Positions 31,270 to 46,563 of a DNA stretch of 64,000 bases are shown here, piece after piece. This stretch comes from Naegleria gruberi. Its lineage: Eukaryota. Both the position numbers and the translations under genes were made by a program. The stretch lies in the NCBI GenBank assembly GCA_000004985.1, contig GG738901.1; one strand, 5' to 3'. Below the pieces are notes generated by a model that ran no database searches, had not been told where the DNA came from, and saw only the letters and a list, made by a program, of their open reading frames with translations. Position 1 is the first letter of the stretch; the number at the start of each line of letters is the position of its first letter.

Positions 31270-32250
31270 TTACAGAACAAATCTTGGTACGTTCTCATTT
31301 TCCTGTGCTAAATAATTTATATTATCAATGTTATTCATTGATAACATGTTTCCAATATTAAATTGAGTAAGGTCTGTATTCTGAGAGAGGAGAAATGTCA
31401 GAATAGTTTCAGAATCATTTGGTCCTGTATATTCTGTGAAATAATCAGAGAAGGGATACTTTTCCAATTTTTCCTTAAAGAGATCAAGCTTGGTAAAAAC
31501 TATTGAAACATCCGCTGGTATATATTCTGAATAATTTACAAATTCACTAAAATTTTGTAAAGCCAACCAAAGACAATTAGCTCCAGAAATTGAGTCTGTT
31601 AAATTGTAATCTGCAAGGGAAATTAAATAAATTACTCGTGTCATGGTATTGTCAAAATGAGAAATCCACTTTCGTTTCTCATTTCTTTGTGGACTAGGAT
31701 CAATTAGTTTACTTGTTTCAAATGAAAATTCATAAATTGATGACTTGGAATGAGGTATTTTAGTTTGTAAAAGATCATGAATTGTAAAATCTGCATTGAT
31801 TGCTTGTAATTTGGCAATGAAATTCTCAGAAAAAAAGTATCGAATATTTTCCATATATCTGAAATGATGTGAAATGAATTCCAATTCCTCACTCTTTAGC
31901 ATTGTTAAATATTTCATAAATTCGATCATGCTTGATGTGAAAACTCCACTTTTCCTAGCTTTTTTAATTTCCTCATTTAAATTACTGAATTTAAAATCGA
32001 CTATTTTGAATGTTTGCCAACAGATGTCCAAACATCGAATGACATACTTTCGAATATGCAATTCTCTTTCTTCCGCATTCATCATGCTATTAGTTTCTTT
32101 CGATAGATGATAAATTCCATGTCGAAAGGTTGACTTTCCACTTGAACATGCTCCTAGAATTAGTATTTGTTTTTTGCATGGTGTAATTCTGCGTCTCAAA
32201 GCAGTATCAATAGCTTGACTGTGAAGTTTCTGCTGCTTTCGTTTACTCAT
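31270..32250 (-). CDS. Heterotrimeric G-protein alpha subunit-like protein with degenerate GTPase motifs
   Basis: A 326-aa ORF starts at ATG after an A-run. It aligns to G-alpha-i across ILILGACSSGKSTF (P-loop kept), IDPSPQRNEKRKWISHFD (versus DVGGQRSERKKWIHCFE), VIYLISLADYNL and SIVFTKLDLFKEKLEKYPFSDYFTEYTG (versus IILFLNKKDLFEEKI...YPEYAG). Confidence 0.85.
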   Translation of the reverse strand: MSKRKQQKLHSQAIDTALRRRITPCKKQILILGACSSGKSTFRHGIYHLSKETNSMMNAEERELHIRKYVIRCLDICWQTFKIVDFKFSNLNEEIKKARKSGVFTSSMIEFMKYLTMLKSEELEFISHHFRYMENIRYFFSENFIAKLQAINADFTIHDLLQTKIPHSKSSIYEFSFETSKLIDPSPQRNEKRKWISHFDNTMTRVIYLISLADYNLTDSISGANCLWLALQNFSEFVNYSEYIPADVSIVFTKLDLFKEKLEKYPFSDYFTEYTGPNDSETILTFLLSQNTDLTQFNIGNMLSMNNIDNINYLAQENENVPRFVL

Positions 32251-32623: not shown

Positions 32624-35600
32624 ATGTTGAACAATAAATCTGAGCGAAGTGGTGATGAAAAAGAGGAGGATCTTGTGATTCAGAATCCCTCTAACTGTAA
32701 ATGTAATAATCACAACAATGGTAAGCAGCATCTTGAAGGGACAAATTTAATGCAACAACCACAACCACTGTTGGATGATGATGTGAATGATATTCTTCAA
32801 TTATTAACAATAGAAAGTTGCAGTGGAGGTTGTAGCTTTGATTGTCTTAAATTCGAAGAGAAGGAAGCAGTCGAAGAGGATACCTGTAATCCAATGTCGC
32901 AACAACATCTTCCTTCCGATATCAAATCGGAACCAATTCTCCTACTGCTTACTGATAAGAAGGCAACATCAACAATGGATCACAACGTAAGTTATCATCA
33001 AACATGTAAATTAACGTGCCATTTGGGCGATTTGACTAATTCAGAAGTCGTATGCATCTAACAAACAAGGCGACAATTTTCATCATGAAAAAAGAACAGA
33101 CAATATCATCAACAAGAAGAACAAGGCTTCCTCATCATTAGGCAGTGCTTTTAAAGAAGATTTTGTAAATTTTGTTTCAGAATCCACAAGTTCCTCTTAC
33201 ATTCCGCAACAGCCATTCACAACATTATATTCGAAAAGAATGAAGGACGAAGAGATGGTGGAGAATAATCAATCTACTGTTAATGAAGATGGAATCAAGA
33301 CATCATCTGAAGCTAAACCAACACAATTTAACCACTCCTCACATCATCAAAGGCCTCATCATATTAACAAGGGTCTCGGAGAAGAACAACAATACAAATT
33401 TCCTTCATCTATTACACCACTTTCACTGGCCAATATTCATGCCAATGCATCGACTAACTTACTGCTAACTTCATCAACATTATTTAATTCTTCAAGTGAA
33501 TCACATGGTGGTGGAACCATTTCGAGAAGCTCCTCCAATACTTCAATGGATAGCTCCTCCTATTCACTCTTGAATAATCACCATCATCTAACCACATCTT
33601 CCTCACCCTCTGATGGTTTTCACTCAACTCTAAAATCCCTAGAAAATGTTCTCCCTCCATTCTTTACTCCATGCGTGCCACCTCATGCATCATTCAATTA
33701 CTATTCAGAACATTATTGGGGAGAACATCCCTTATCACTAACCTCCTTCTCTCCAATTCTTCATTATGAAAAGAAGTCATCTCTAACGATTATTTGTCGA
33801 TACACACCACAACAAACTAGGAATTCTCCAAGAAGGGAGAGACCTTCCTCTCAAAAAGAATTAATAGAGAATGAGATTTATTGTCTGAAAGTTTCACTGG
33901 ACAAACCATCCATTCCAAAGCTGGAAAGGGATGCAGAAATTTCTCGATTCTTGACCAATGAATTTTCTCAAGTGTTGGATCCAGCACAACAGGTTATTGT
34001 CAGTACTAAGGCCTATTTGTCTGATTATTTTATTCTCGTGAGGGAGTTTATTGATTGTGTTTCGTTGAGATCATTTATTGATAGATCGAAAACATATGCT
34101 AGAGCAGAACCAATTACTGATGAGAATTTTGAAACCTTAACAGATGATACTGTAACACTTCTCAATGAAGAACAACGAGTGAAAGAAAACATTACAATAT
34201 TGGAAAGTAATTTAACACTTGCTATTTCTATTTGTATGAGTGTTGCTCAACTGCATCACTCAAGAGTTTGTCATGCTGACATTAGGCCAGAAAATATAAT
34301 TGTAGAAGGACCTAAATGCAATATAAGATTGATTGATTTTGGAAAGAGTACATTCCTCCCTTTGGAGCATCCATTTTTATATACCGATAAAATTATTGGT
34401 AGTCAAATGTATTGTGCTCCAGAGGCAACAGGAAAGATTCCAAAACCAATAGGTTTCCACACTGATATATATTCACTTGGATTTGTTCTCTTTGAGTTAT
34501 TTTCCAAAGAACATCCATTTACCAAGTTTAGGACATTAGATTTCGTATTTCAACATTTGACTCAACAGCCAGAGTCCTTGTTTCAAAATCTAGCGAGAAG
34601 GTCTTTTATATCAGCCAATGAAGGAAACCTATTCACAGCTGCTACTAAAGCAATTTCAAGACTAATTACCAAAGCAATTCAAAAATCTATTGAGAAACGT
34701 TATTTGAGTATTTTTGGATTGAAACGAGATTTGGTCTACATACAGAATGCTATTCAACTAGAAGATATGGAAGCTCTTGAAAATTTTCAAGCTGGTATGA
34801 ATGATGTTCAAACAACTTTATCCATACCTTATGGTGTATATGGTAGAGAGGAAATTTTCAAAAAATTGGAACTGAAACTTGAAAATATGATGGAATCTAG
34901 TGAGCCAACGATTGTCCTTCTGGGGGGCTATAGTGGCATAGGTAAATCATGTATTGTTAAGGAGTTTAGGACAAGAAGTAAAACAGCAATACAATTCTTT
35001 GAGGCAAAATACGATCAACATATGAATGTACCTTACTATGCCATTATTTCCATATGTAAACAAATTATTGGCGACGTTCTTGGAGAATCTGAATCAGTGA
35101 TTAAGGATTTCAGATTCCAACTTGGTACACTTATCAATTCAGATCAATTAGAAATGTTGAGTGATGCAATTCCTGACATGTCATATTTATTTACAACTAA
35201 TGCAACCAAAAAGCATACCTCCCCATCAATGGGAGATCAGAATGGAGAGCGTATGAAGCTCTTTTCACAAGGAAGTAAGTAATATTTTGAATTTAACATT
35301 ATAACAATATTATATTGCTCAGTTATTCATCTCTTTAGTGTTTATACTCATTTAAAGAAAAAGAGGTTATGCATTTTCTTGGATGACTTGCAATGGACTG
35401 ATTTTGATAGCATGAAGCTATTGAAGGAAATTCTTGGAACTGGTTCTTGTGATACTGTTCCTCTTTTAATTATTGGAGCATATAGAAATAACGAAGTGGG
35501 AAAGGACCATCCTCTATTTTACTTTTTAGAAAATCTCAAACTTAAAGTGAACATTGAAGAAATTGAAGTTGTTGAGTTGACAGAAGATCAATCTAACATG

Positions 35601-38600
35601 ATTGTCTCAGAGTCTTTAAGGAAAAATAGAGCTGAAACAGAAGAACTAACCAAAATACTCTTCTCTAGGACGAATGGAAACCCCTTCTTTTTAAAGCAGT
35701 TATTGGCTGGTTTATTTAAGGACGGATCTATTTATTTCGATACTCAAACAGATACTATTACATGGGATAAAAAGAAAATAGAAAATGCAGAATACTCTGA
35801 AAATGTTATTGACTATCTCCTTGGACATTTGGAAAAATTACCAAAACAAACACAAGATATTCTTGCATTTGCTTCTTGCTTTGGAAATAAGTTTTCCAAT
35901 GAAGACATGCTCCACCTACTCAATCAGCAACAAGAAGAAAAGATAGACTTGATGCAACTTAAAGAAAGATTGAACTATGCGGTGAAGGAGGGATGGATTT
36001 CAAATATCAATTCTGGTAATTTACGATTTAATCATGATAGACTCCAACAAGCTGCTTATGAATCACTGCCTTTGAATGAAAGGTTGAGAATTCACTATAC
36101 CTATGGTAAGCAGCTTCTCAAAAAAGCAGAAGAAGATGATTCTTTGGAGGAACGTTTATTTGATATAGTTGTACAGTTAAATCACAAACATAATGATCCT
36201 GCTTTCTTGGAGAATAGAGATGAGAGAAGATTACTCATTGACCTCAATAATAGAGCTGCAAAGAAGGCTTTGGAAACATCATCTACAGATAAAGCCATTG
36301 GCTTTGTTTATATTGCAAGGCAAATTCTAGAACACGAACCAGACTGTTGGAGTGAAGAAACTTATAAGTTGGCTTTTGAGAGTTTACTAATTGTTGGTAA
36401 TTGTAACTATTCTGTAAATATAGAATTGGCAACCTCTCTATTCATGGAAGCTATTCAAAAAGCTCAAAACAAGACAGATCTTTATGAGGCATGCAACCAT
36501 GGATTGATGGCCTATCTTTCACAAGGAAAATATGAAGATGTGTTTAAAATTTTGACTGATCATGTATTTACTACATATGAAGAGTTGAATTTCCTTACTC
36601 AGGAGCATACTGTTGAATCCTTGACAACATGGATACTTAACAAGATGAAATACATGAAAGAACATGTGCTCGTTAATTTTACTCAAAAATCTGACATTCT
36701 CAATTTGCCAGATATTGATGATTTGGAAAAGTGGCATCTTATTTGTTTGCTCACTCAATCCTGTCCTGCTGTTTTTCATATGAATAACTCACTCAGCAAA
36801 CACTACTTTATGATTATGATATTAATATCGTCTGATATAGTTTTAAATAATGGCATTACTCCTCTTTCCCCATTGTTAATTTCAGTCTTTGCATGGTCTT
36901 GGTGTAATTTTGAGTTTTATCCTCAGATGAACATGTTCTTAGAGGCAGGATTAGAGATGGAAAAGACTAGATTCAGGAATGAGCATGAATTGGCAAGTTG
37001 CACATTGATGAAGTTGATGAGTTATTACTTTTCGCCAACAATTAACCCTCTTGAGGTGTGGAATATATCCGAGGAAGCCTTCTTATTGTCTGTGAAATCA
37101 AAGAACAAACACTATGGCGGTTTCTCTATTCTGTGGTATCCATTCCATCACTTATTCTATAGCCACGGAGATGTAAAGACTTCTATTGGATTGAGCTTGA
37201 ATTCAATTGAGATTTTCAAGAGAAATGGAAATGTTATGTTGATGGATGCCAGTAAAATGATACTGGAATTGAAATATGTTCTTTCAGGAGATGTAGACCA
37301 TTACCTGCCAACGTATGTAAGCCAAGTGAAGGAATATCCATTCTTTAGACAAATGCACTACTCGTTCAAGGGAATTTCACTCTATTTCCAAAATGATATT
37401 GAAAAATCTTTCAAGTGTATGGAAAAATCGTATGATTTTAGAGAAGACTCTGTTGGTATGTGTTCAAGCTGGATTGATTTAATCTTCCTAGGTTTAATCT
37501 CAGCTATCTTTTTGAGAAGTGCTCAAGAAAAGATTGAAAAAGCCCAAGAAATACTGAAATATTCTATAGAAAGATTGGAAATGATTTCCCAAGCTAATTC
37601 TTCTGTTTTTCTTGCTCCTTTGGAGTTCATAAGAGCCGAGACATTGTACTCAGAATATTGTAGAACAGGTGTCGAAAATACTAGAAAAATCATTTCTCAC
37701 TACAGAAAGAGTTATATTATGGCTGAAAAGGAAAGAAACACCTTTTTAGCTAGGCTGATTAATTTGAGAACAGGAGAGTTTTACAACAGTCTAGGTATGG
37801 ATGATGGTATTAGTGGAAACTACTTCCTTAGAGCTATGGAATCTTTTGAACAGTTTGGTGCTTCCATCGTTGTTGATTATATTTTGGAGAATTATTCAGG
37901 TCACATCGATGGCTATTCATCATTTAGTAATAGAAATCCTGAACAAGTATTCTCTAACACTTCTCTATCTGATGAAACAACAGATCACTCTCTTGCTGGA
38001 GTAACAAAGAGCAGAATTTCTGAATCAACAGAATTGGATTTTAGAGAGATTTTCATTTCAATTCTGCCAATTCTTTCAGAACAAACGTTATCACCAAGAT
38101 GTTGTTTGATTTTGAAGAGAGATTCAACAGTTTATGTAGATGCCGAATTTAATGCAGACCTGAATTCTATTGAAGCACTTTCGTCTACCAAACAATTCGA
38201 AAATAGTGATTTGGACAAATTTTCAGATTTATTCCCTCTCAAGATGATTCACAGAACTCTAAGATCCAGAACAGAGCAACAACTCGTATGGAATGACAAT
38301 GAGAAAGAGTATTACTTTGTGAAGAATGTAGTGGCCTCTGCTTTATCTATTCCTATCATGAAGAAAAAGACAGTCATAGGTATGCTTTTTATTATTATTT
38401 TATTTATATTATTTAATGTATTAAGGTTGTATATACTTGGAAAATAAGGAAACGAAGGATGTATTCACAACTGAAAAAATTAACCTTGCCAAACTTATCA
38501 TCTCGATCAGTTTGGACAATGCTGGAATTTTCACATCTATTAACAAATCCTATGCTAGGTTTTTACCTGCTGAATTCTTAAAGTTGCTTGGAAAGAGTCA

Positions 38601-39423
38601 CGTAACTAAGGTAAGGTTGGGCGATGCAGTTTCTAGAGAAATGACAGTGCTCTTCAGTGATATTTATGGATTTACAGAGATTATGGAGGGACTTTCTGCA
38701 AAGGATGGCTTTGCTTTTATTAATCTACTATTGAAGAGTATTGCACCTCCAATTTCAAGAAACTCTGGATTTATTGACAAGTTTGTTGGTGATGGAATAT
38801 TGGCATTGTTTATTGAACCGCAAGGAGCTGTCACTGCAGCTTTAGAAATGATTTCAGAATTGGAAGTTTTCAATAGTAGAAATAATACCAATGTAAAGTT
38901 GGGAGTTGGTTTGCATCATGGTATTGTTCAACTTGGTACGATTGGATATGAGCAACGATTGGATGCTACTGTTATTTCAGATACTGTGAACACAGCTAGC
39001 AGATGTGAATCTCTCACAAGAACTTTTCATTCACATATTCTAGTTACTAAACCAGTTATGGATGCTGTTACAGTGCCACACAGTGTGATAAGTACCGAGT
39101 TGGGTAAATTCATGCTGAAAGGAAAACACATACCTCATCAAATTTACAATATCGCTTCTAAATCATGGAAAGGAAGTGGTAGTGCTAAAGAATTCGCTTT
39201 ACTAAGCAAAGTTATTGATCTCTTCTCCAGGAGTGAATTTACCGAATCATTTGCCCTCGCAGAAACAATTCTCAAGAATACAAAGAACAATACCATTATA
39301 GCTGCATGCAACATGTATAAGGAAGCATCAACATTATACGGATCAGTTGTTTTACCAAGTGAATGGCAAGGTGAAATTCGGTTGACCAAGGATGGAGAAG
39401 TCAGAGAGTACTTTTCAAAATAA
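32624..39423 (+). CDS. Multidomain signalling protein: Ser/Thr kinase-like domain, AAA/STAND-type P-loop NTPase, helical/TPR-like region, GAF-like domain, class III adenylyl/guanylyl cyclase (4 exons, 2,215 aa)
   Basis: Exons are 32624-32986, 33045-35274, 35323-38379 and 38426-39423. The introns are 58, 48 and 46 nt (GTAAGT, GTAAGT and GTATGC ... AG), and the total is 6648 nt. Kinase strings are VCHADIRPENIIV, IDFGKS and MYCAPE. The P-loop is LLGGYSGIGKSCIV and the Walker B is LCIFLDDLQWTD. The GAF end, restored by splicing, is TVIGCIYLENKETKDVFTTEKINLAKLIISISLDNA. Cyclase strings are MTVLFSDIYGFTE, IDKFVGDGILALF and ISDTVNTASRCES. Confidence 0.85.
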
Positions 39424-39582: not shown

Positions 39583-42039
39583 ATGAAAAAACGACATTCA
39601 ACCTTTTCCACCACAATCAATCATCGAGATTTGATTAAATCATCTAATTTTAATTCATTATCTACTAGTAATATTCAATCATCATCATCACCAATATTGA
39701 GCACTACTTCTAGAAAAGGCTTCCGAGAACGACCACTCATCAAATTCATATTAAAACAACGTTCCAAACGATTGCAACAACAAGGCTCTAGTGAGTTTGC
39801 TGGTGCGGAAGTGGAAATTTTGAAGGCTTGTTGGAGAAAAATAGAGGAAGAGGAGATGAAGGACTATCGAGAAAATCTCTCGAATCGATTGGGGTTTTAT
39901 TTTGATGATGAGGAATTGTTGGCCATGTTCGGAAATCAATTGATGAAGGATGAAGAGGAACTACAGCAGAGGACGACAATGGATACTACCAACACTGAAC
40001 CAAGTTCGGCTGGTGGTGCTACTCTTGACAATTCTTCACTGAAGAGTGGTGACAGTGCTCGTTCATTGACAAGTTTCGGATCTGACTCGAAACTAAATTC
40101 GCCAATTAGTCCCAACCTCGACAAGAAGCATTTGCAGTCAACTTCATCGACCAAAAGCTCCACTTCATTTGCATCCTTCTCTGGTGCACCATCATCACTC
40201 ACACCAAGCCCAAACATTGAGGAGAACAAAAATCTTTCCTACCTCTACGATATTCATACTTTTCCTAGCAAGCTGAATCTGATACCAACCATGCATTATA
40301 ATGTGTTGGATGTTGTTGAGTTGTCCTCTGTACAGCAAATTGTAAATATAACAAGTCCTTCTTCGGAGATTGGGATACTTAAAGATTGTACAAATGATTC
40401 TTCTCCTACTGTAAATATTGAATCAACCACTTTTAGTCTCGAGATTTTAGATAGTTTTATTACTGTTGATTCTTTTGAAGATTTTTCAAATCCTTCATAT
40501 AATCCACTCAATATTAGACATTTATATTGTGATTATTGGTCCAACAAACTAGAATTCAAACAAAGGATCAGTAAATCTTCTCTTACTTCAAACAATAAGA
40601 AGGAAAATGAAAAATCAAAAAACTATATACCATTTGAAGAATTGGAAAAATGTAGAAATTGTACAGAACTCAAATTGAACAATAACAAGATTAGATCTCT
40701 AGATTCTAAACATTTTACCAATTTTGCACACTTGACAGAATTGAATCTATCTTCGAATAGAATGTCTAAAGCAAGACTGCCTGAGGATATTTTCTCACAT
40801 ATGCCACATTTGCAGAGGCTTTCTCTCGATTATATGGGTCTTAAGACTCTACCAAAATCAATTAACAAATTGGTAGAGCTTACCTACCTTTCACTTTCCT
40901 TTAACAAATTGAACACTTTCAACTTGCTACATGGAAAAGACAGACACTTGAATGATTTTTGGCCAAAATTGACCAATTTGGAGTACTTGAATTTGTCTGG
41001 AAATAGATTGAATAGATTTCCTTCAGAAATTTGTAATTGCAAATCATTGGAATTTTTGAGTTTGTCCAACAATAGAATAATTAACGAGATACCAAAGGAA
41101 ATTGAAAATCTCAAAAAATTAGCAATACTCTTCTTGAATGGAAACAAAGTTACTGCTCTTGATATTAATAGAAATTTGGAATTTTTAGAGAATTTGACCC
41201 ATTTGGAATTGGGTCACAATCCTAATATCCATGTGGTTCCACCTCCTGTTTACAATTTAACCAAATTAGAATCACTCTGTTTGAGCCATCTAACCATTAG
41301 TCATTTATCGGATGATATTGGAAAATTAAGAAATTTGACTCACTTGGATTTGTATGGCTCCAAACTAACTGGTCTTCCAAAGGGTATTTCACAGCTTATC
41401 AACCTTAGGAATTTGGATATGCGATATTGCAGAGGTATCAAGGAGTTCCCTATTGAATTGTTTGGTCAAAAAGTTTCAAGTAGCACTATCACTACTACCT
41501 CTCCAATGAAATCCCTTACTAGATTGAGTCTTAGCTATACAATGATAGAGAGCATTCCTGAGGATATTTCCTCTCTCCAGAGTTTACAAGCACTTTTGGT
41601 GAATGACTGTCCCTTGCTCGAAGAAATTAAGGGTATTGACAAGCTTGTCAATCTTGTAGAGTTTGACATCAGTCGTTGCATCTCCCTTGTTGAGCCTCCT
41701 TCTGATGTGTGTGAGAGAGGTCTTGCCCACATTAGAGGATATCTGAAAGAAAAGGACGATGGACCTTCTATTTTTTTAAAGTTTATTGGATCAGTATTTG
41801 GTGGAAATACCTCAAATAATTCCTCCACCAACAAGAAGAAACTACCTTCACCAATAGGCACAGAAAACAACCTCAAAGTGGAACACAATGAATTACTTGT
41901 TGCCTCACCAGTACCAAGCATTAATTCTGGAGATGATGATGGTGATAGTGATTCTGATGATGAGATTGGCGCATCTAAAAAGAAGAAACCAAGTCCAAGT
42001 GGCAGTACTGTCAAGTCATTATTTTCCTTTTGGAAATAA
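39583..42039 (+). CDS. Leucine-rich repeat protein (typical/SDS22-like LRRs, SHOC2-like array) with low-complexity N-terminus
   Basis: An 818-aa ORF starts at ATG after an A-run. About 15 repeats of the form LxxLxLxxNxLxxLPxxI run from ~residue 360. The tail is acidic and basic. Confidence 0.85.
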   Translation: MKKRHSTFSTTINHRDLIKSSNFNSLSTSNIQSSSSPILSTTSRKGFRERPLIKFILKQRSKRLQQQGSSEFAGAEVEILKACWRKIEEEEMKDYRENLSNRLGFYFDDEELLAMFGNQLMKDEEELQQRTTMDTTNTEPSSAGGATLDNSSLKSGDSARSLTSFGSDSKLNSPISPNLDKKHLQSTSSTKSSTSFASFSGAPSSLTPSPNIEENKNLSYLYDIHTFPSKLNLIPTMHYNVLDVVELSSVQQIVNITSPSSEIGILKDCTNDSSPTVNIESTTFSLEILDSFITVDSFEDFSNPSYNPLNIRHLYCDYWSNKLEFKQRISKSSLTSNNKKENEKSKNYIPFEELEKCRNCTELKLNNNKIRSLDSKHFTNFAHLTELNLSSNRMSKARLPEDIFSHMPHLQRLSLDYMGLKTLPKSINKLVELTYLSLSFNKLNTFNLLHGKDRHLNDFWPKLTNLEYLNLSGNRLNRFPSEICNCKSLEFLSLSNNRIINEIPKEIENLKKLAILFLNGNKVTALDINRNLEFLENLTHLELGHNPNIHVVPPPVYNLTKLESLCLSHLTISHLSDDIGKLRNLTHLDLYGSKLTGLPKGISQLINLRNLDMRYCRGIKEFPIELFGQKVSSSTITTTSPMKSLTRLSLSYTMIESIPEDISSLQSLQALLVNDCPLLEEIKGIDKLVNLVEFDISRCISLVEPPSDVCERGLAHIRGYLKEKDDGPSIFLKFIGSVFGGNTSNNSSTNKKKLPSPIGTENNLKVEHNELLVASPVPSINSGDDDGDSDSDDEIGASKKKKPSPSGSTVKSLFSFWK

Positions 42040-43740: not shown

Positions 43741-46563
43741 TTAAAGGTCATCATCTGATTCAACCTCTTCGACTCCCTCCACTATTGGTTCTTCTTCTTC
43801 TACAATCATAGGGCCACTTTGATTGTCAACTCTGGCTTTGGTGAATTTGTAGAGTTTGTCCAAGAGTGAACGACCTTGATCCCACCAAGAAATATCAACC
43901 TCATGATAGGTGCCACGAAGTGGATTGATAACTCCAATATTCTTAATTTCCATTCCATCCAATCTAGCCATGGCTGCATAGCAGAGTAATTGAATAATCC
44001 ACTCAACTTCAATATCTTGGGATACCGAACATTTAATATCAATAATGGTCTCGCCATCAATGATGATATCTGCCTCTCCAGTAACATGTTTTCCATAACT
44101 GAGACTTCTATGGGTATTAACTGAGCTTTCAGTTTTTTCTACAATAAATGGAACAAAGTGCTCTTGTAAATTATTGAACAGTTCTGTATAGTTTGGAGCA
44201 ATGTCCTTAATAAAGTCAAACTTTTTCTTTAGATTGGTATTGCCAAGATAGAGCATTCTGGTTCTTCCCTCTTTAACAACTGCATCAAGTTTGGAAATTT
44301 CGAATACACTTTCTAGAATATCAATTGACTCATAATTTGGATTTGTAAAAATTCTGTAAGCTGTTTTTAAACTGTCTACATAACCGGGTGGGAAGGCATA
44401 TTCTGTCATTACTGGAATAACCTCGAATGAAAATTGTCCCTTCTCCAATATTTTCTCGAAAGATTCAATAATCTCAGTCATGACTATCTTTTCATAGCCA
44501 TCAGTAATAGATTTTAACAAAGCTTTTGGAGGTTTTCCATTTCTCATCAACTGCTTCAATTTCTTTGCATATCTATTAAAGACCTGGATACTGCCTGTAT
44601 TTAATACGATTGCCTCGTTAATGAAGAGTTCAGTGCATGTATGACTAAAACCTCCTCCATTAGGTATTTTCTCAGAAATCATTCTACAAAATAAAGTATC
44701 AATAAAGTTTCCAAAGTCTGTAAACATTTGATTTTCGTAAACCACGTCACAGTATGCAAAGTCTGTATCCACAATTTTGGTTTTCGTAAATTCGATTTGT
44801 GGCAAACATCCTTCTTCCTTGAGTATTGTCATGAGTTCTCCATCAATATTACGAACCATATTTGTTACGGTGTATGGATTAATAGATGAGTCGGATGCTG
44901 ATCTTGGCTGTTCTGAAATACGCAAGTCTGTGGGACTATGTAATCTGAATACGCTACGATCAATCTCTGTTATATAACTCAAACAAGTTGCTGTCTTGGG
45001 GAGAACAATGTGTAACTCATCCTTTGCTCTGGTAACAGCCACATATAATACACGTCTTAGTTCCGCATCATTATCACCTTTCCATTTATCATTTGATGAA
45101 TCCACCAAGAAAACAATATCCCACTCCAAACCTTTAGACTTGTGTATGGTTGATAGGCAAACTTTTCCAGTTGTTGTGTGTCTTTCCATTTCCTTTAAAG
45201 ATTTTGATTTTTCCATAATAGTAATATGTGGAATGAAGAATTTAGATAATTGTTCCTCTACCTTATAGAGACCATAATTTGTTGGAGAAAGGATTGCTAT
45301 TCTTTCTCTTGGCACTCCACGTTTCAAATATTCTGATATTTTCTTAGCAACATACAAACCCTGGTTATCATTTACAATGATTGGTTTAAGATTAGATTCT
45401 CTTGTGGTTGTCATTTCTTTTGGAATATTATCTGGATTATTTCTCAAAATTGCATTTGCCACTTGCAAAATTTCTGGCGTACTTCTATAATTTCTAGTCA
45501 GTGTTAACAGCTTAGAGTTTGGATATTTTGAGTGAAAATTCAAAATATGTTCCACACTGGATCCTCTCCATGAGTAAATGTTTTGCGAATCATCTCCTAC
45601 GGCAATTATCTTGCATCCTCTTTTGTGAAACTCTTCAAAAATCTCTGCTTGAAAATTATCAATATCTTGATACTCATCAATTATGAGATACTTTTTCTTT
45701 TTACAAATTTCATCCGCAATTTCTGGATAATTCTTCATTAAGTTCCTCAATCTATATCCATATTCAATCACACAAGCTTGAGAATCAAAATATTGCCAAT
45801 ATTTCTTCAATGTCTTGTAAGCAAATGCATCAATGGTTCCAATAGTAAATTTACTCTTAACTCCAATACTGGCAAGCTTTTCCTTCATATCATTTGCTGC
45901 CAATCTTGAAAATGTTGTCAACATGATCTGATGAGCTGGAATTTTCAAATACTTTATCATGTAAACAATTTTACAAATAATGGTTGTTGTCTTTCCACTT
46001 CCAGCGCAAGCCAACACTAACAAGTCATCATTCACATCTCCAAAAACAACTTGCTTTTGTTCTTCACTCAAATCAATCTGTACATCATCAATTGTAAATG
46101 TTTTCATAATTTCCTCTTCGGATGGAAAAACAATTTCCTTCTTCTTCCTTACTCTTTTTACAGGCTTTGAAATTTCCTCATCACCTCCAAAATTAATTTC
46201 CGGCATTAAACTAATTGCCTCATTACTCATAGCATTAATGATTTCTTCCTTTTCTTGAGGTTGGTGAGTAGAAAATAATTCCTTCACCTCATCATCTTGT
46301 TGCTTCAAAGTCTGTTTCCTTCTCGTAGCATTATTAATCAAAGATTGAGAAAAACATCTCCTCATCATTACATGATTCAATAAAGTAGAGTTATTGGTTT
46401 TCAACAAGGCTGATGAAGATCCTGTCGGGAATGATTTATTTCCACCATTAATTTTAATATGATTAATTATATTATTGTTATTACTATTTAAATGATGTAA
46501 AGTTGAAGTGGATGATAATGTATTCAAGCGATAGAGAAGTGAATTGTGCTTGATGTTGCGCAT
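43741..46563 (-). CDS. UvrD/Rep/PcrA-type SF1 DNA helicase fused to a C-terminal PD-(D/E)xK (RecB/Cas4-like) nuclease domain
   Basis: A 940-aa intronless ORF. Helicase motifs are I ACAGSGKTTT, II YLIIDEYQD, III VGDDSQNIYSWRGS, IV RNYRSTPEI, V STIHKSKGLEWDIVFL and VI LYVAVTRAKDEL. The C-terminal string is GEADIIIDGETIIDIKCS...EWIIQLLCYAAM. The N-terminal ~100 aa are Ser/Asn/Arg-rich and may be a targeting sequence. Confidence 0.9.
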   Translation of the reverse strand: MRNIKHNSLLYRLNTLSSTSTLHHLNSNNNNIINHIKINGGNKSFPTGSSSALLKTNNSTLLNHVMMRRCFSQSLINNATRRKQTLKQQDDEVKELFSTHQPQEKEEIINAMSNEAISLMPEINFGGDEEISKPVKRVRKKKEIVFPSEEEIMKTFTIDDVQIDLSEEQKQVVFGDVNDDLLVLACAGSGKTTTIICKIVYMIKYLKIPAHQIMLTTFSRLAANDMKEKLASIGVKSKFTIGTIDAFAYKTLKKYWQYFDSQACVIEYGYRLRNLMKNYPEIADEICKKKKYLIIDEYQDIDNFQAEIFEEFHKRGCKIIAVGDDSQNIYSWRGSSVEHILNFHSKYPNSKLLTLTRNYRSTPEILQVANAILRNNPDNIPKEMTTTRESNLKPIIVNDNQGLYVAKKISEYLKRGVPRERIAILSPTNYGLYKVEEQLSKFFIPHITIMEKSKSLKEMERHTTTGKVCLSTIHKSKGLEWDIVFLVDSSNDKWKGDNDAELRRVLYVAVTRAKDELHIVLPKTATCLSYITEIDRSVFRLHSPTDLRISEQPRSASDSSINPYTVTNMVRNIDGELMTILKEEGCLPQIEFTKTKIVDTDFAYCDVVYENQMFTDFGNFIDTLFCRMISEKIPNGGGFSHTCTELFINEAIVLNTGSIQVFNRYAKKLKQLMRNGKPPKALLKSITDGYEKIVMTEIIESFEKILEKGQFSFEVIPVMTEYAFPPGYVDSLKTAYRIFTNPNYESIDILESVFEISKLDAVVKEGRTRMLYLGNTNLKKKFDFIKDIAPNYTELFNNLQEHFVPFIVEKTESSVNTHRSLSYGKHVTGEADIIIDGETIIDIKCSVSQDIEVEWIIQLLCYAAMARLDGMEIKNIGVINPLRGTYHEVDISWWDQGRSLLDKLYKFTKARVDNQSGPMIVEEEEPIVEGVEEVESDDDL

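Follow-up and report, generated by a model that had tools for sequence, protein, structure and literature searches.

A gene at positions 32624-39423 was analyzed in a 64,000-nucleotide (nt) stretch of the Naegleria gruberi genome (contig GG738901.1), referred to below as the window, whose coordinates are used throughout. The region very probably holds one gene of four exons, which encodes a soluble sensor enzyme of ∼2,150-2,215 amino acids (aa) that belongs with the HstK/CHK1-like proteins and has a class IIIb adenylyl cyclase as its output. The gene is real and was already annotated, and its architecture is abundant and has been described before. The evidence consisted of a reading frame that is uninterrupted once three short introns are removed, a Pfam-supported series of kinase, STAND ATPase, helical, GAF and cyclase domains with conserved catalytic residues, and numerous relatives with the same domain order.

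The gene model and its splice junctions

The window is AT-rich (about 33% GC) and eukaryotic. An earlier note, made from the DNA letters alone, had listed four open reading frames (ORFs) at 32624-33061, 33240-35282, 35379-38447 and 38437-39423, and had read them as the exons of a single gene with three short introns. The coordinates of the ORFs were exact; the first two start with ATG and the last two with TTG. Splicing out three GT-AG introns of 58, 48 and 46 nt gave a 6,648-nt coding sequence without an internal stop, encoding 2,215 aa when the ATG at 32624 is taken as the start; all aa positions below refer to this product. The exons and introns, all on the plus strand, were as follows.

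32624-32986 (+): exon 1, the low-complexity, non-conserved N-terminus, from a 145-codon ORF; the public model uses 32750-32986
32987-33044 (+): intron 1 of the earlier note, 58 nt, GTAAGT...TTCAG
acceptor 33119/33120 (+): intron 1 of the public model, 133 nt; the frame is kept, as with the acceptor of the earlier note
33045-35274 (+): exon 2, a linker rich in Ser and Asn, the Ser/Thr kinase and the N-terminal half of AAA_16 with Walker A
35275-35322 (+): intron 2, 48 nt, GTAAGT...CAG, phase 1, 19% GC, with an in-frame TAA inside
35323-38379 (+): exon 3, from Walker B through the helical/winged-helix arm and the TPR-like sensor region into GAF, most of which it encodes
38380-38425 (+): intron 3, 46 nt, GTATGC...AAG, phase 1, 11% GC
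38426-39423 (+): exon 4, the last part of GAF, then linker helix, cyclase and C-terminal tail, with the stop codon at 39421-39423

The reading as one gene was borne out by the public N. gruberi NEG-M annotation, which joins the same exons. The entry XP_002671953.1 / EFC39209.1 (2,148 aa) is the same gene and was reproduced exactly by exons 32750-32986, 33120-35274, 35323-38379 and 38426-39423. The gene had therefore not been newly recovered, and its public label, 'serine/threonine protein kinase', mentions the kinase alone.

The junctions could be compared with the locus of the best relative in another species, the N. lovaniensis protein C9374_007874 (1,990 aa, 49% identity; genomic locus L001 10001-16398). 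The proposed junctions 35274/35323 and 38379/38426 were both upheld by the public model and by this protein, which is colinear over the two of them. At 32986/33045 the donor agreed with the public model and the acceptor differed. At the N. lovaniensis locus an intron matches intron 2 in both codon and phase, with the flanks CAA TCA A/GTAAGT...GCAG/TT ATT compared with CAA GGA A/GTAAGT...CAG/TT ATT in the window. Intron 3 is missing there and the coding sequence of the ortholog is continuous (KSVLGCVYLENRE). Apart from intron 2, the intron positions of the two genes differ. Intron turnover was also seen in the other direction, as two introns of N. lovaniensis, close to query aa 1104 and aa 2072, have no N. 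gruberi counterpart. The GC content of the N. gruberi introns was 11-19%, compared with about 35% for the exons.

According to the earlier note, splicing restores a Walker B context and a C-terminal GAF motif that the raw ORFs split. This was true in part. The spliced product does read ...KKKRLCIFLDDLQWTD and ...TVIGCIYLENKETKDVFTTEKI...SLDNA, and intron 3 does interrupt a GAF codon, that of Gly1884. The Walker B strand, however, lies entirely in exon 3, and it had been cut by the start-codon rule of the ORF caller and not by intron 2.

The 5' end is where the two models part. They have introns 2 and 3 and the intron-1 donor in common, but the public model starts at the ATG at 32750 instead of 32624 and uses the intron-1 acceptor 33119/33120 instead of 33044/33045, which makes it 67 aa shorter. 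Homology gave no support to exon 1 or junction 1, since aa 1-317 are low-complexity and non-conserved; when compared with the Naegleria and Percolomonas relatives, the N-terminal ∼320 aa of the N. gruberi protein are likewise non-conserved. Upstream of exon 2 its frame is open only to 33036, 9 nt before the acceptor of the earlier note, and 68 stop-free codons precede its first ATG in a region where the stop frequency is 0.061 per codon. In its own frame exon 1 had a codon log-odds score of +0.21 bits/codon, compared with negative scores in all five others; the scores were +8.0 for 32624-32749 and +17.4 for 32750-32986. The openness of the frame, the run of 68 stop-free codons and the codon usage of exon 1 together suggest that coding sequence precedes the first in-frame ATG in exon 2. 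For the disputed 75 nt (33045-33119) the score was +4.4 in frame, compared with 5.3±2.7 for coding windows and -16±11 out of frame, and another frame scored +2.9; codon statistics, a weak test here, decided for neither intron-1 acceptor. The public model omits 42 codons before its ATG (32624-32749) and treats 25 codons as intron (33045-33119), and both segments are coding-like. Judged by codon usage, 67 aa may be missing from the 5' part of the public model.

An exhaustive search of representative sequences with aa 1016-2215 returned a 97%-identical protein of 854 aa, whose 90% cluster contains two N. gruberi NEG-M entries, this protein and XP_002671953.1. The 854-aa protein, XP_002678939.1 ('soluble adenylate/guanylate cyclase'), is encoded on another scaffold and is 96.7% identical to aa 1363-2213. 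It probably represents an allelic scaffold or a recent duplicate with an under-called, truncated gene model. Within the 64-kb window no paralog of the protein was found by tblastn.

Domain array and catalytic residues

Pfam hidden Markov models were run on the spliced protein, a check that the earlier note had proposed. The matches supported its domain calls, with GAF below the curated cut-off, and agreed with its order of kinase, AAA/STAND, helical region, GAF and cyclase. The following domains and elements were delimited.

33744-34751 (+): Hanks-type Ser/Thr kinase, about aa 355-690, with two insertions
34836-35474 (+): AAA_16 / STAND P-loop NTPase, aa 719-915, split by intron 2
35475-38009 (+): STAND arm and alpha-solenoid, aa 916-1760, with about 800 aa of TPR-like helices
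38040-38496 (+): GAF, aa 1771-1907, with intron 3 inside the Gly1884 codon
38470-38598 (+): linker helix and cyclase-proximal element YARFLPAEFLKLLGK, aa 1899-1941, the connection between GAF and cyclase
38635-39129 (+): class III nucleotidyl cyclase, aa 1954-2118
39184-39384 (+): three-helix TPR-like tail with PxxWxGE, aa 2137-2203 (residues 377-429 of the AlphaFold2 (AF2) model described below, with a predicted local distance difference test score (pLDDT) of 92-96)

The kinase matched Pkinase (PF00069) with an E-value of 1.3e-22 and 80.9 bits (cut-off 31.7) and PK_Tyr_Ser-Thr with 2.2e-11, and its nearest solved relatives are bacterial PknB-type kinases. The residues Lys403 (beta3), Glu419 (alphaC), His-Ala-Asp533, Asn538, Asp552-Phe-Gly and Ala-Pro-Glu581 are all present. 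Among aligned relatives the beta3 Lys was conserved in 26/26, the catalytic Asp in 27/28, the Asn in 28/28, the DFG Asp in 27/28 and the APE Glu in 28/29; the alphaC Glu was less conserved (16 of 28). This pattern of residues points to retained nucleotide binding and phosphotransfer.

The earlier note had found no obvious Gly-rich loop and had suggested a pseudokinase sensor. The observation was correct, as GxGxxG is not present and the corresponding loop reads SPILHYEKKSSLTIICRY, with a Ser that is typical of the family. That the domain is catalytically dead and serves only as a regulatory or scaffolding module would also accord with the catalytic loop, HADIRPEN, in which Arg535 replaces the Lys of HRDxKxxN, with the large insertions in the N-lobe and ahead of the catalytic loop, and with a Pfam match that covers mainly the C-lobe. 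The Lys position, however, is variable in the family (K in 10, N in 9 and R in 3 proteins), and the bacterial homologs likewise have a degenerate Gly-rich loop, which is a family-wide trait. Elsewhere, too, subdomain I often diverges: in a survey of cyanobacterial Ser/Thr kinases the exact GXGXXG was found in only 53% and was not present in 47%, and HstK was placed in family III, with other motif variants (PMC2176072). As the beta3 Lys, catalytic Asp, Asn, DFG Asp and APE Glu are near-invariant in the aligned relatives and Glu419 is kept here, the suggestion of a pseudokinase gained no support, and we regard it as unlikely, though serious enough to keep in mind.

The adjoining domain matched AAA_16 (PF13191) with an E-value of 1.5e-23, next to weak matches to nSTAND6 and NB-ARC. 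Walker A is GGYSGIGKS (Lys755, nt 34944-34946) and Walker B is LCIFLDD (Asp885/886, nt 35382-35387); the Walker A Lys and the Walker B Asp were invariant in 30/30 relatives. The arm contains a GxP-type motif, TNGNPFF, whose Pro was kept in 24/30 relatives. In an AF2 model of the exon-3 product (pLDDT 76.7), winged-helix-like beta-hairpins are followed by about 30 helices of TPR-like repeats. A Foldseek search with the arm and solenoid returned TPR superhelices, and the second-best structural match was the STAND-TPR protein 6mfv, in which a TPR sensor accompanies a MalT-type STAND NTPase, as in the N. gruberi protein.

Outside the kinase domain there was a single hydrophobic 19-mer window (aa 1575-1598), which is modelled as a buried helix of the solenoid. 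Since the N-terminus is not signal peptide-like and this window is modelled inside the solenoid, the protein is probably soluble. The same two grounds led to the rejection of a transmembrane or receptor reading.

For the C-terminal part, an AF2 model of aa 1761-2215 (pLDDT 87) places an alpha/beta domain first, followed by a linker helix of 29 residues, the cyclase and a tail of three helices. The GAF call was strengthened by this alpha/beta fold and by the homologs, of which 17 of the 20 aligned match PF01590 (best E-value 3.5e-18). The linker helices correspond to model residues 139-167 and 172-178. In the element ahead of the cyclase the motif RF[LV]PxEFLxxLGK is conserved across homologs, and the stretch aligns to the handle region of bPAC. 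With the GAF-cyclase model Foldseek found structures composed of a sensor, a helix and a cyclase (OaPAC, bPAC and a phytochrome-cyclase), and CyaC and CyaB with template modelling (TM) scores of 0.75-0.80. The three-helix tail with PxxWxGE is kept from bacteria to Naegleria, the heterolobosean homologs included, and occurs in GAF-cyclases and in other class IIIb cyclases.

The cyclase matched Guanylate_cyc (PF00211) with an E-value of 3.2e-15 and 56.6-60.3 bits (cut-off 21.9). When aligned to bPAC and OaPAC, the domain has the metal residues Asp1962 and Asp2006, the substrate residues Lys2002 and Thr2065, Asn2072, Arg2076 and the terminal Lys2117. The closest solved cyclases are bPAC (5mbh), OaPAC (4yus), Pseudomonas aeruginosa CyaB (3r5g) and Spirulina CyaC (1wc0), with E-values of about 1e-17 to 1e-14, and all seven catalytic and specificity residues are common to these and the N. 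gruberi domain. Their sensors differ, being BLUF, MASE or other domains, and none has a kinase-STAND-GAF front end. Lys2002 (in DKFVGDG) and Thr2065 (in DATVISD) align with KFIGDC and DHTLLGD of bPAC and were conserved in 26/30 and 24/30 relatives, respectively; for the metal, transition-state and terminal Lys residues the figure was 25-30 of 30. Because the catalytic residues and the Lys/Thr pair are conserved, the domain is predicted to be an active class IIIb adenylyl cyclase and not a guanylyl cyclase.

An output of cyclic GMP, or a non-catalytic cyclase-homology domain, might be supposed from the name 'Guanylate cyclase' that UniRef gives to the N. lovaniensis paralogs and from the Pfam family, which spans adenylyl and guanylyl cyclases. 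Both are highly improbable. The substrate pair is that of the adenylyl cyclases bPAC, OaPAC and CyaB and not of the Glu/Cys type, where the rule is Lys/Asp for adenylyl and Glu/Cys for guanylyl cyclases (PMC1262709), and the complete and conserved set of metal and transition-state residues speaks against a non-catalytic domain.

Relatives, distribution and gene neighborhood

The earlier note had compared the protein with bacterial and fungal kinase-AAA-GAF-histidine kinases and with actinobacterial AAA/TPR cyclases. Both comparisons were apt, and the front end is homologous to that of the former. The order kinase-AAA_16-TPR-GAF is found in HstK (Anabaena Alr2258) and the other 'dual kinases' of cyanobacterial STK family III and in the fungal group X hybrid histidine kinases. 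The output of the HstK/Chk1-type proteins is HisKA/HATPase, with or without a receiver domain, whereas the N. gruberi protein carries a class III cyclase and gave no Pfam match to HisKA or HATPase. By its domains the protein thus belongs to the cyclase-output branch of the HstK/CHK1-like family. The mycobacterial cyclase-AAA_16-TPR-LuxR proteins such as Rv0386 likewise carry a class III cyclase together with a MalT-type STAND NTPase; in these the cyclase is N-terminal, the output is DNA-binding, and there is neither a kinase nor a GAF domain. The domain spacing is very like that of Candida albicans Chk1, in which S_TKc occupies 435-636, AAA_16 689-894 and GAF 1828-1975 (PMC9069115). Chk1 and Schizosaccharomyces pombe Mak2 and Mak3 have the kinase-AAA_16-GAF front end in common, and deletion of the kinase/AAA region of Chk1 resulted in phenotypes and is reported to abolish its function (PMC9069115).

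The earlier note had called a kinase-AAA-GAF-cyclase order less familiar and had proposed to count it across relatives. The count was run on 50%-identity cluster representatives: the search gave 3,353 matches below 1e-30, and the architecture was scored on the 144 new proteins among the best 150. Kinase, AAA_16 and cyclase were present in this order in 118 of these 144 top representatives, 105 of which had a GAF domain detectable in a single-sequence search. The architecture is therefore abundant. Named bacteria also encode it in single ORFs, and a published description dates from 2010 (PMC2853384). The protein described then, Arthrospira platensis NIES39_A07100, is an HstK-type protein with an adenylate cyclase in place of the histidine kinase; like the N. 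gruberi protein it has an N-terminal Ser/Thr kinase, a GAF domain and a C-terminal adenylate cyclase, and it has an additional PAS domain (PMC2853384). A literature search found no paper that names AAA_16 together with Guanylate_cyc.

Most bacterial homologs are of the histidine-kinase-output type, with full-length homology at 21-31% identity and the name 'trifunctional serine/threonine-protein kinase/ATP-binding protein/sensor histidine kinase'. When one genome per bacterial species was scanned, most matches were again of this form, in cyanobacteria and myxobacteria, and uninterrupted single ORFs that end in a cyclase were recovered from Spirosoma, Okeania, Microcoleus, Leptospirales, Chitinophagales and Saprospiraceae. 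Single-ORF homologs named 'predicted ATPase/class 3 adenylate cyclase' are 22-27% identical to the N. gruberi protein over the full length. Compared with it, the bacterial cyclase-output homologs are intronless and have no long low-complexity N-terminus, and some have another cyclase subtype (P0007, KTIGDAYM-type). Further named relatives are a protein from a Leptospiraceae metagenome-assembled genome and a Parabeggiatoa protein. On a Bacteroidota-like metagenomic contig (L004 10001-20304) two tandem kinase-AAA_16-GAF-cyclase genes of 1,717 aa each overlap by 4 nt, with a cyclase of the KTIGDAYM type.

Among the heteroloboseans, N. lovaniensis has at least four members (C9374_007874, C9374_011087, C9374_011032 and C9374_005915), with the same domain order and 44-49% identity to the N. 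gruberi protein. N. fowleri has at least one, FDP41_008422; in a part-by-part search it matched the kinase, AAA_16 and helical parts only, and its model may be truncated. A 2,012-aa protein of Percolomonas sp. WS has the same domain order and was placed in a related cluster. Two of the nearest relatives outside Naegleria are intronless full-length homologs (L085 8001-14339 and L086 8001-13463; 2,112 and 1,820 aa) with eukaryotic gene neighbors, namely GNT-I, ankyrin and a retro-integrase on one contig and NRDE-2, catalase and WD40/IFT-like genes on the other.

A rough neighbor-joining tree, which is indicative only and in which most tips have no taxonomic label, placed the Naegleria proteins in one clade (100/100 bootstraps) on a long stem, beside the sequences with a eukaryotic context. 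The tree fits an old presence in Heterolobosea. The bacterial members of the histidine-kinase and cyclase types interleave in it, which suggests that the output domain was repeatedly swapped between histidine kinase and cyclase. A recent horizontal transfer from bacteria was rejected, since the Naegleria proteins form a single clade at the end of a long stem, and their nearest relatives lie on contigs with eukaryotic content; an ancient bacterial origin is plausible.

That the ORFs might be divided among several genes (two or more, for example one for a kinase-ATPase and one for a GAF-cyclase) or be part of a decaying pseudogene, with the introns being chance GT...AG pairs, has scarcely any probability left and is effectively refuted: against the annotation of XP_002678939.1 as a stand-alone cyclase of 854 aa stand more than 100 bacterial and eukaryotic homologs and orthologs with the whole array in one polypeptide, many of them single ORFs, the colinearity with N. 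lovaniensis over both internal junctions (the intron-2 codon being identical and intron 3 missing), the low GC content of the introns, and catalytic motifs that are all intact.

Next to the four-exon gene, a G-protein alpha subunit gene (31270-32250, minus strand; PF00503, E-value 3.9e-44) lies head-to-head with it, 373 nt from the ATG at 32624. This pairing is not conserved at the N. lovaniensis locus and is therefore probably coincidental. Downstream lie a leucine-rich repeat (LRR) gene and, beyond it, a UvrD-like helicase gene, both with counterparts in N. lovaniensis.

39583-42039 (+) and 43741-46563 (-): LRR gene and UvrD-like helicase gene, syntenic with N. lovaniensis contig L001 16417-21688

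The LRR gene is a 52%-identity ortholog of the LRR gene that adjoins C9374_007874, but in the opposite orientation. As the next gene, the UvrD-like helicase, is also syntenic, the comparison of gene order points to a local inversion that affects the LRR gene and sets the two species apart.

Proposed mechanism and meaning

Six points weigh against the reading of the gene as a four-exon HstK/CHK1-like sensor enzyme with an adenylyl cyclase output. The start codon (32624 or 32750) and the intron-1 acceptor are provisional and differ between the two models. The kinase, without a Gly-rich loop, with Arg for the catalytic-loop Lys and with large insertions, could be inactive. In this protein itself the GAF match to PF01590 had an E-value of 0.0016-0.014 and 16.4-19.4 bits, below the cut-off of 22.4, and the structural match to 6mfv was weak (TM score 0.28-0.38). 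The STAND switch and the dimer model described below are carried over from other families, and we know of no member of the cyclase-output family with a known biochemical activity.

If the enzyme works as its domains suggest, the STAND module and the TPR sensor would form a nucleotide-dependent switch that governs the on and off states and oligomerization. Class III cyclases are dimers with their active sites at the dimer interface, and the N. gruberi protein would act as a dimer or a higher oligomer. The GAF domain, with a putative ligand, would act through the linker helix and the RFLPxEFLxxLGK element on the cyclase and would thereby control the conversion of ATP to cyclic AMP (cAMP). ATP is probably bound by the N-terminal kinase, which may phosphorylate itself or a partner and so provide a second output or feedback.

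As a test of method, the four-exon, 6.6-kb gene shows that a reading of the raw DNA can recover such a gene and its domain order correctly, and the main value of the result is that of a check. For the annotation, a local revision may be warranted, as the public N-terminus is possibly short by 67 residues and the second copy is annotated only as an 854-aa cyclase. A Naegleria pangenome counted at least 81 cyclases in the genus (PMC9928731). The gene described here is one member of this large repertoire.

A more far-reaching proposal is that the heterolobosean proteins (those of Naegleria, Percolomonas and the protist contigs) form a distinct, old eukaryotic clade of a sensor of bacterial type, in which a STAND switch directly gates both cAMP synthesis and a kinase that is still active. 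In its entirety this is speculative and improbable. If true, these proteins would be STAND receptors of eukaryotes that signal through a second messenger and not through cell death or transcription, and that may serve, for example, in the sensing of prey, bacteria or stress. The kinase, STAND ATPase and cyclase sites are intact in bacteria and in several heteroloboseans, and the biochemistry of a single member would define a common three-enzyme sensor.

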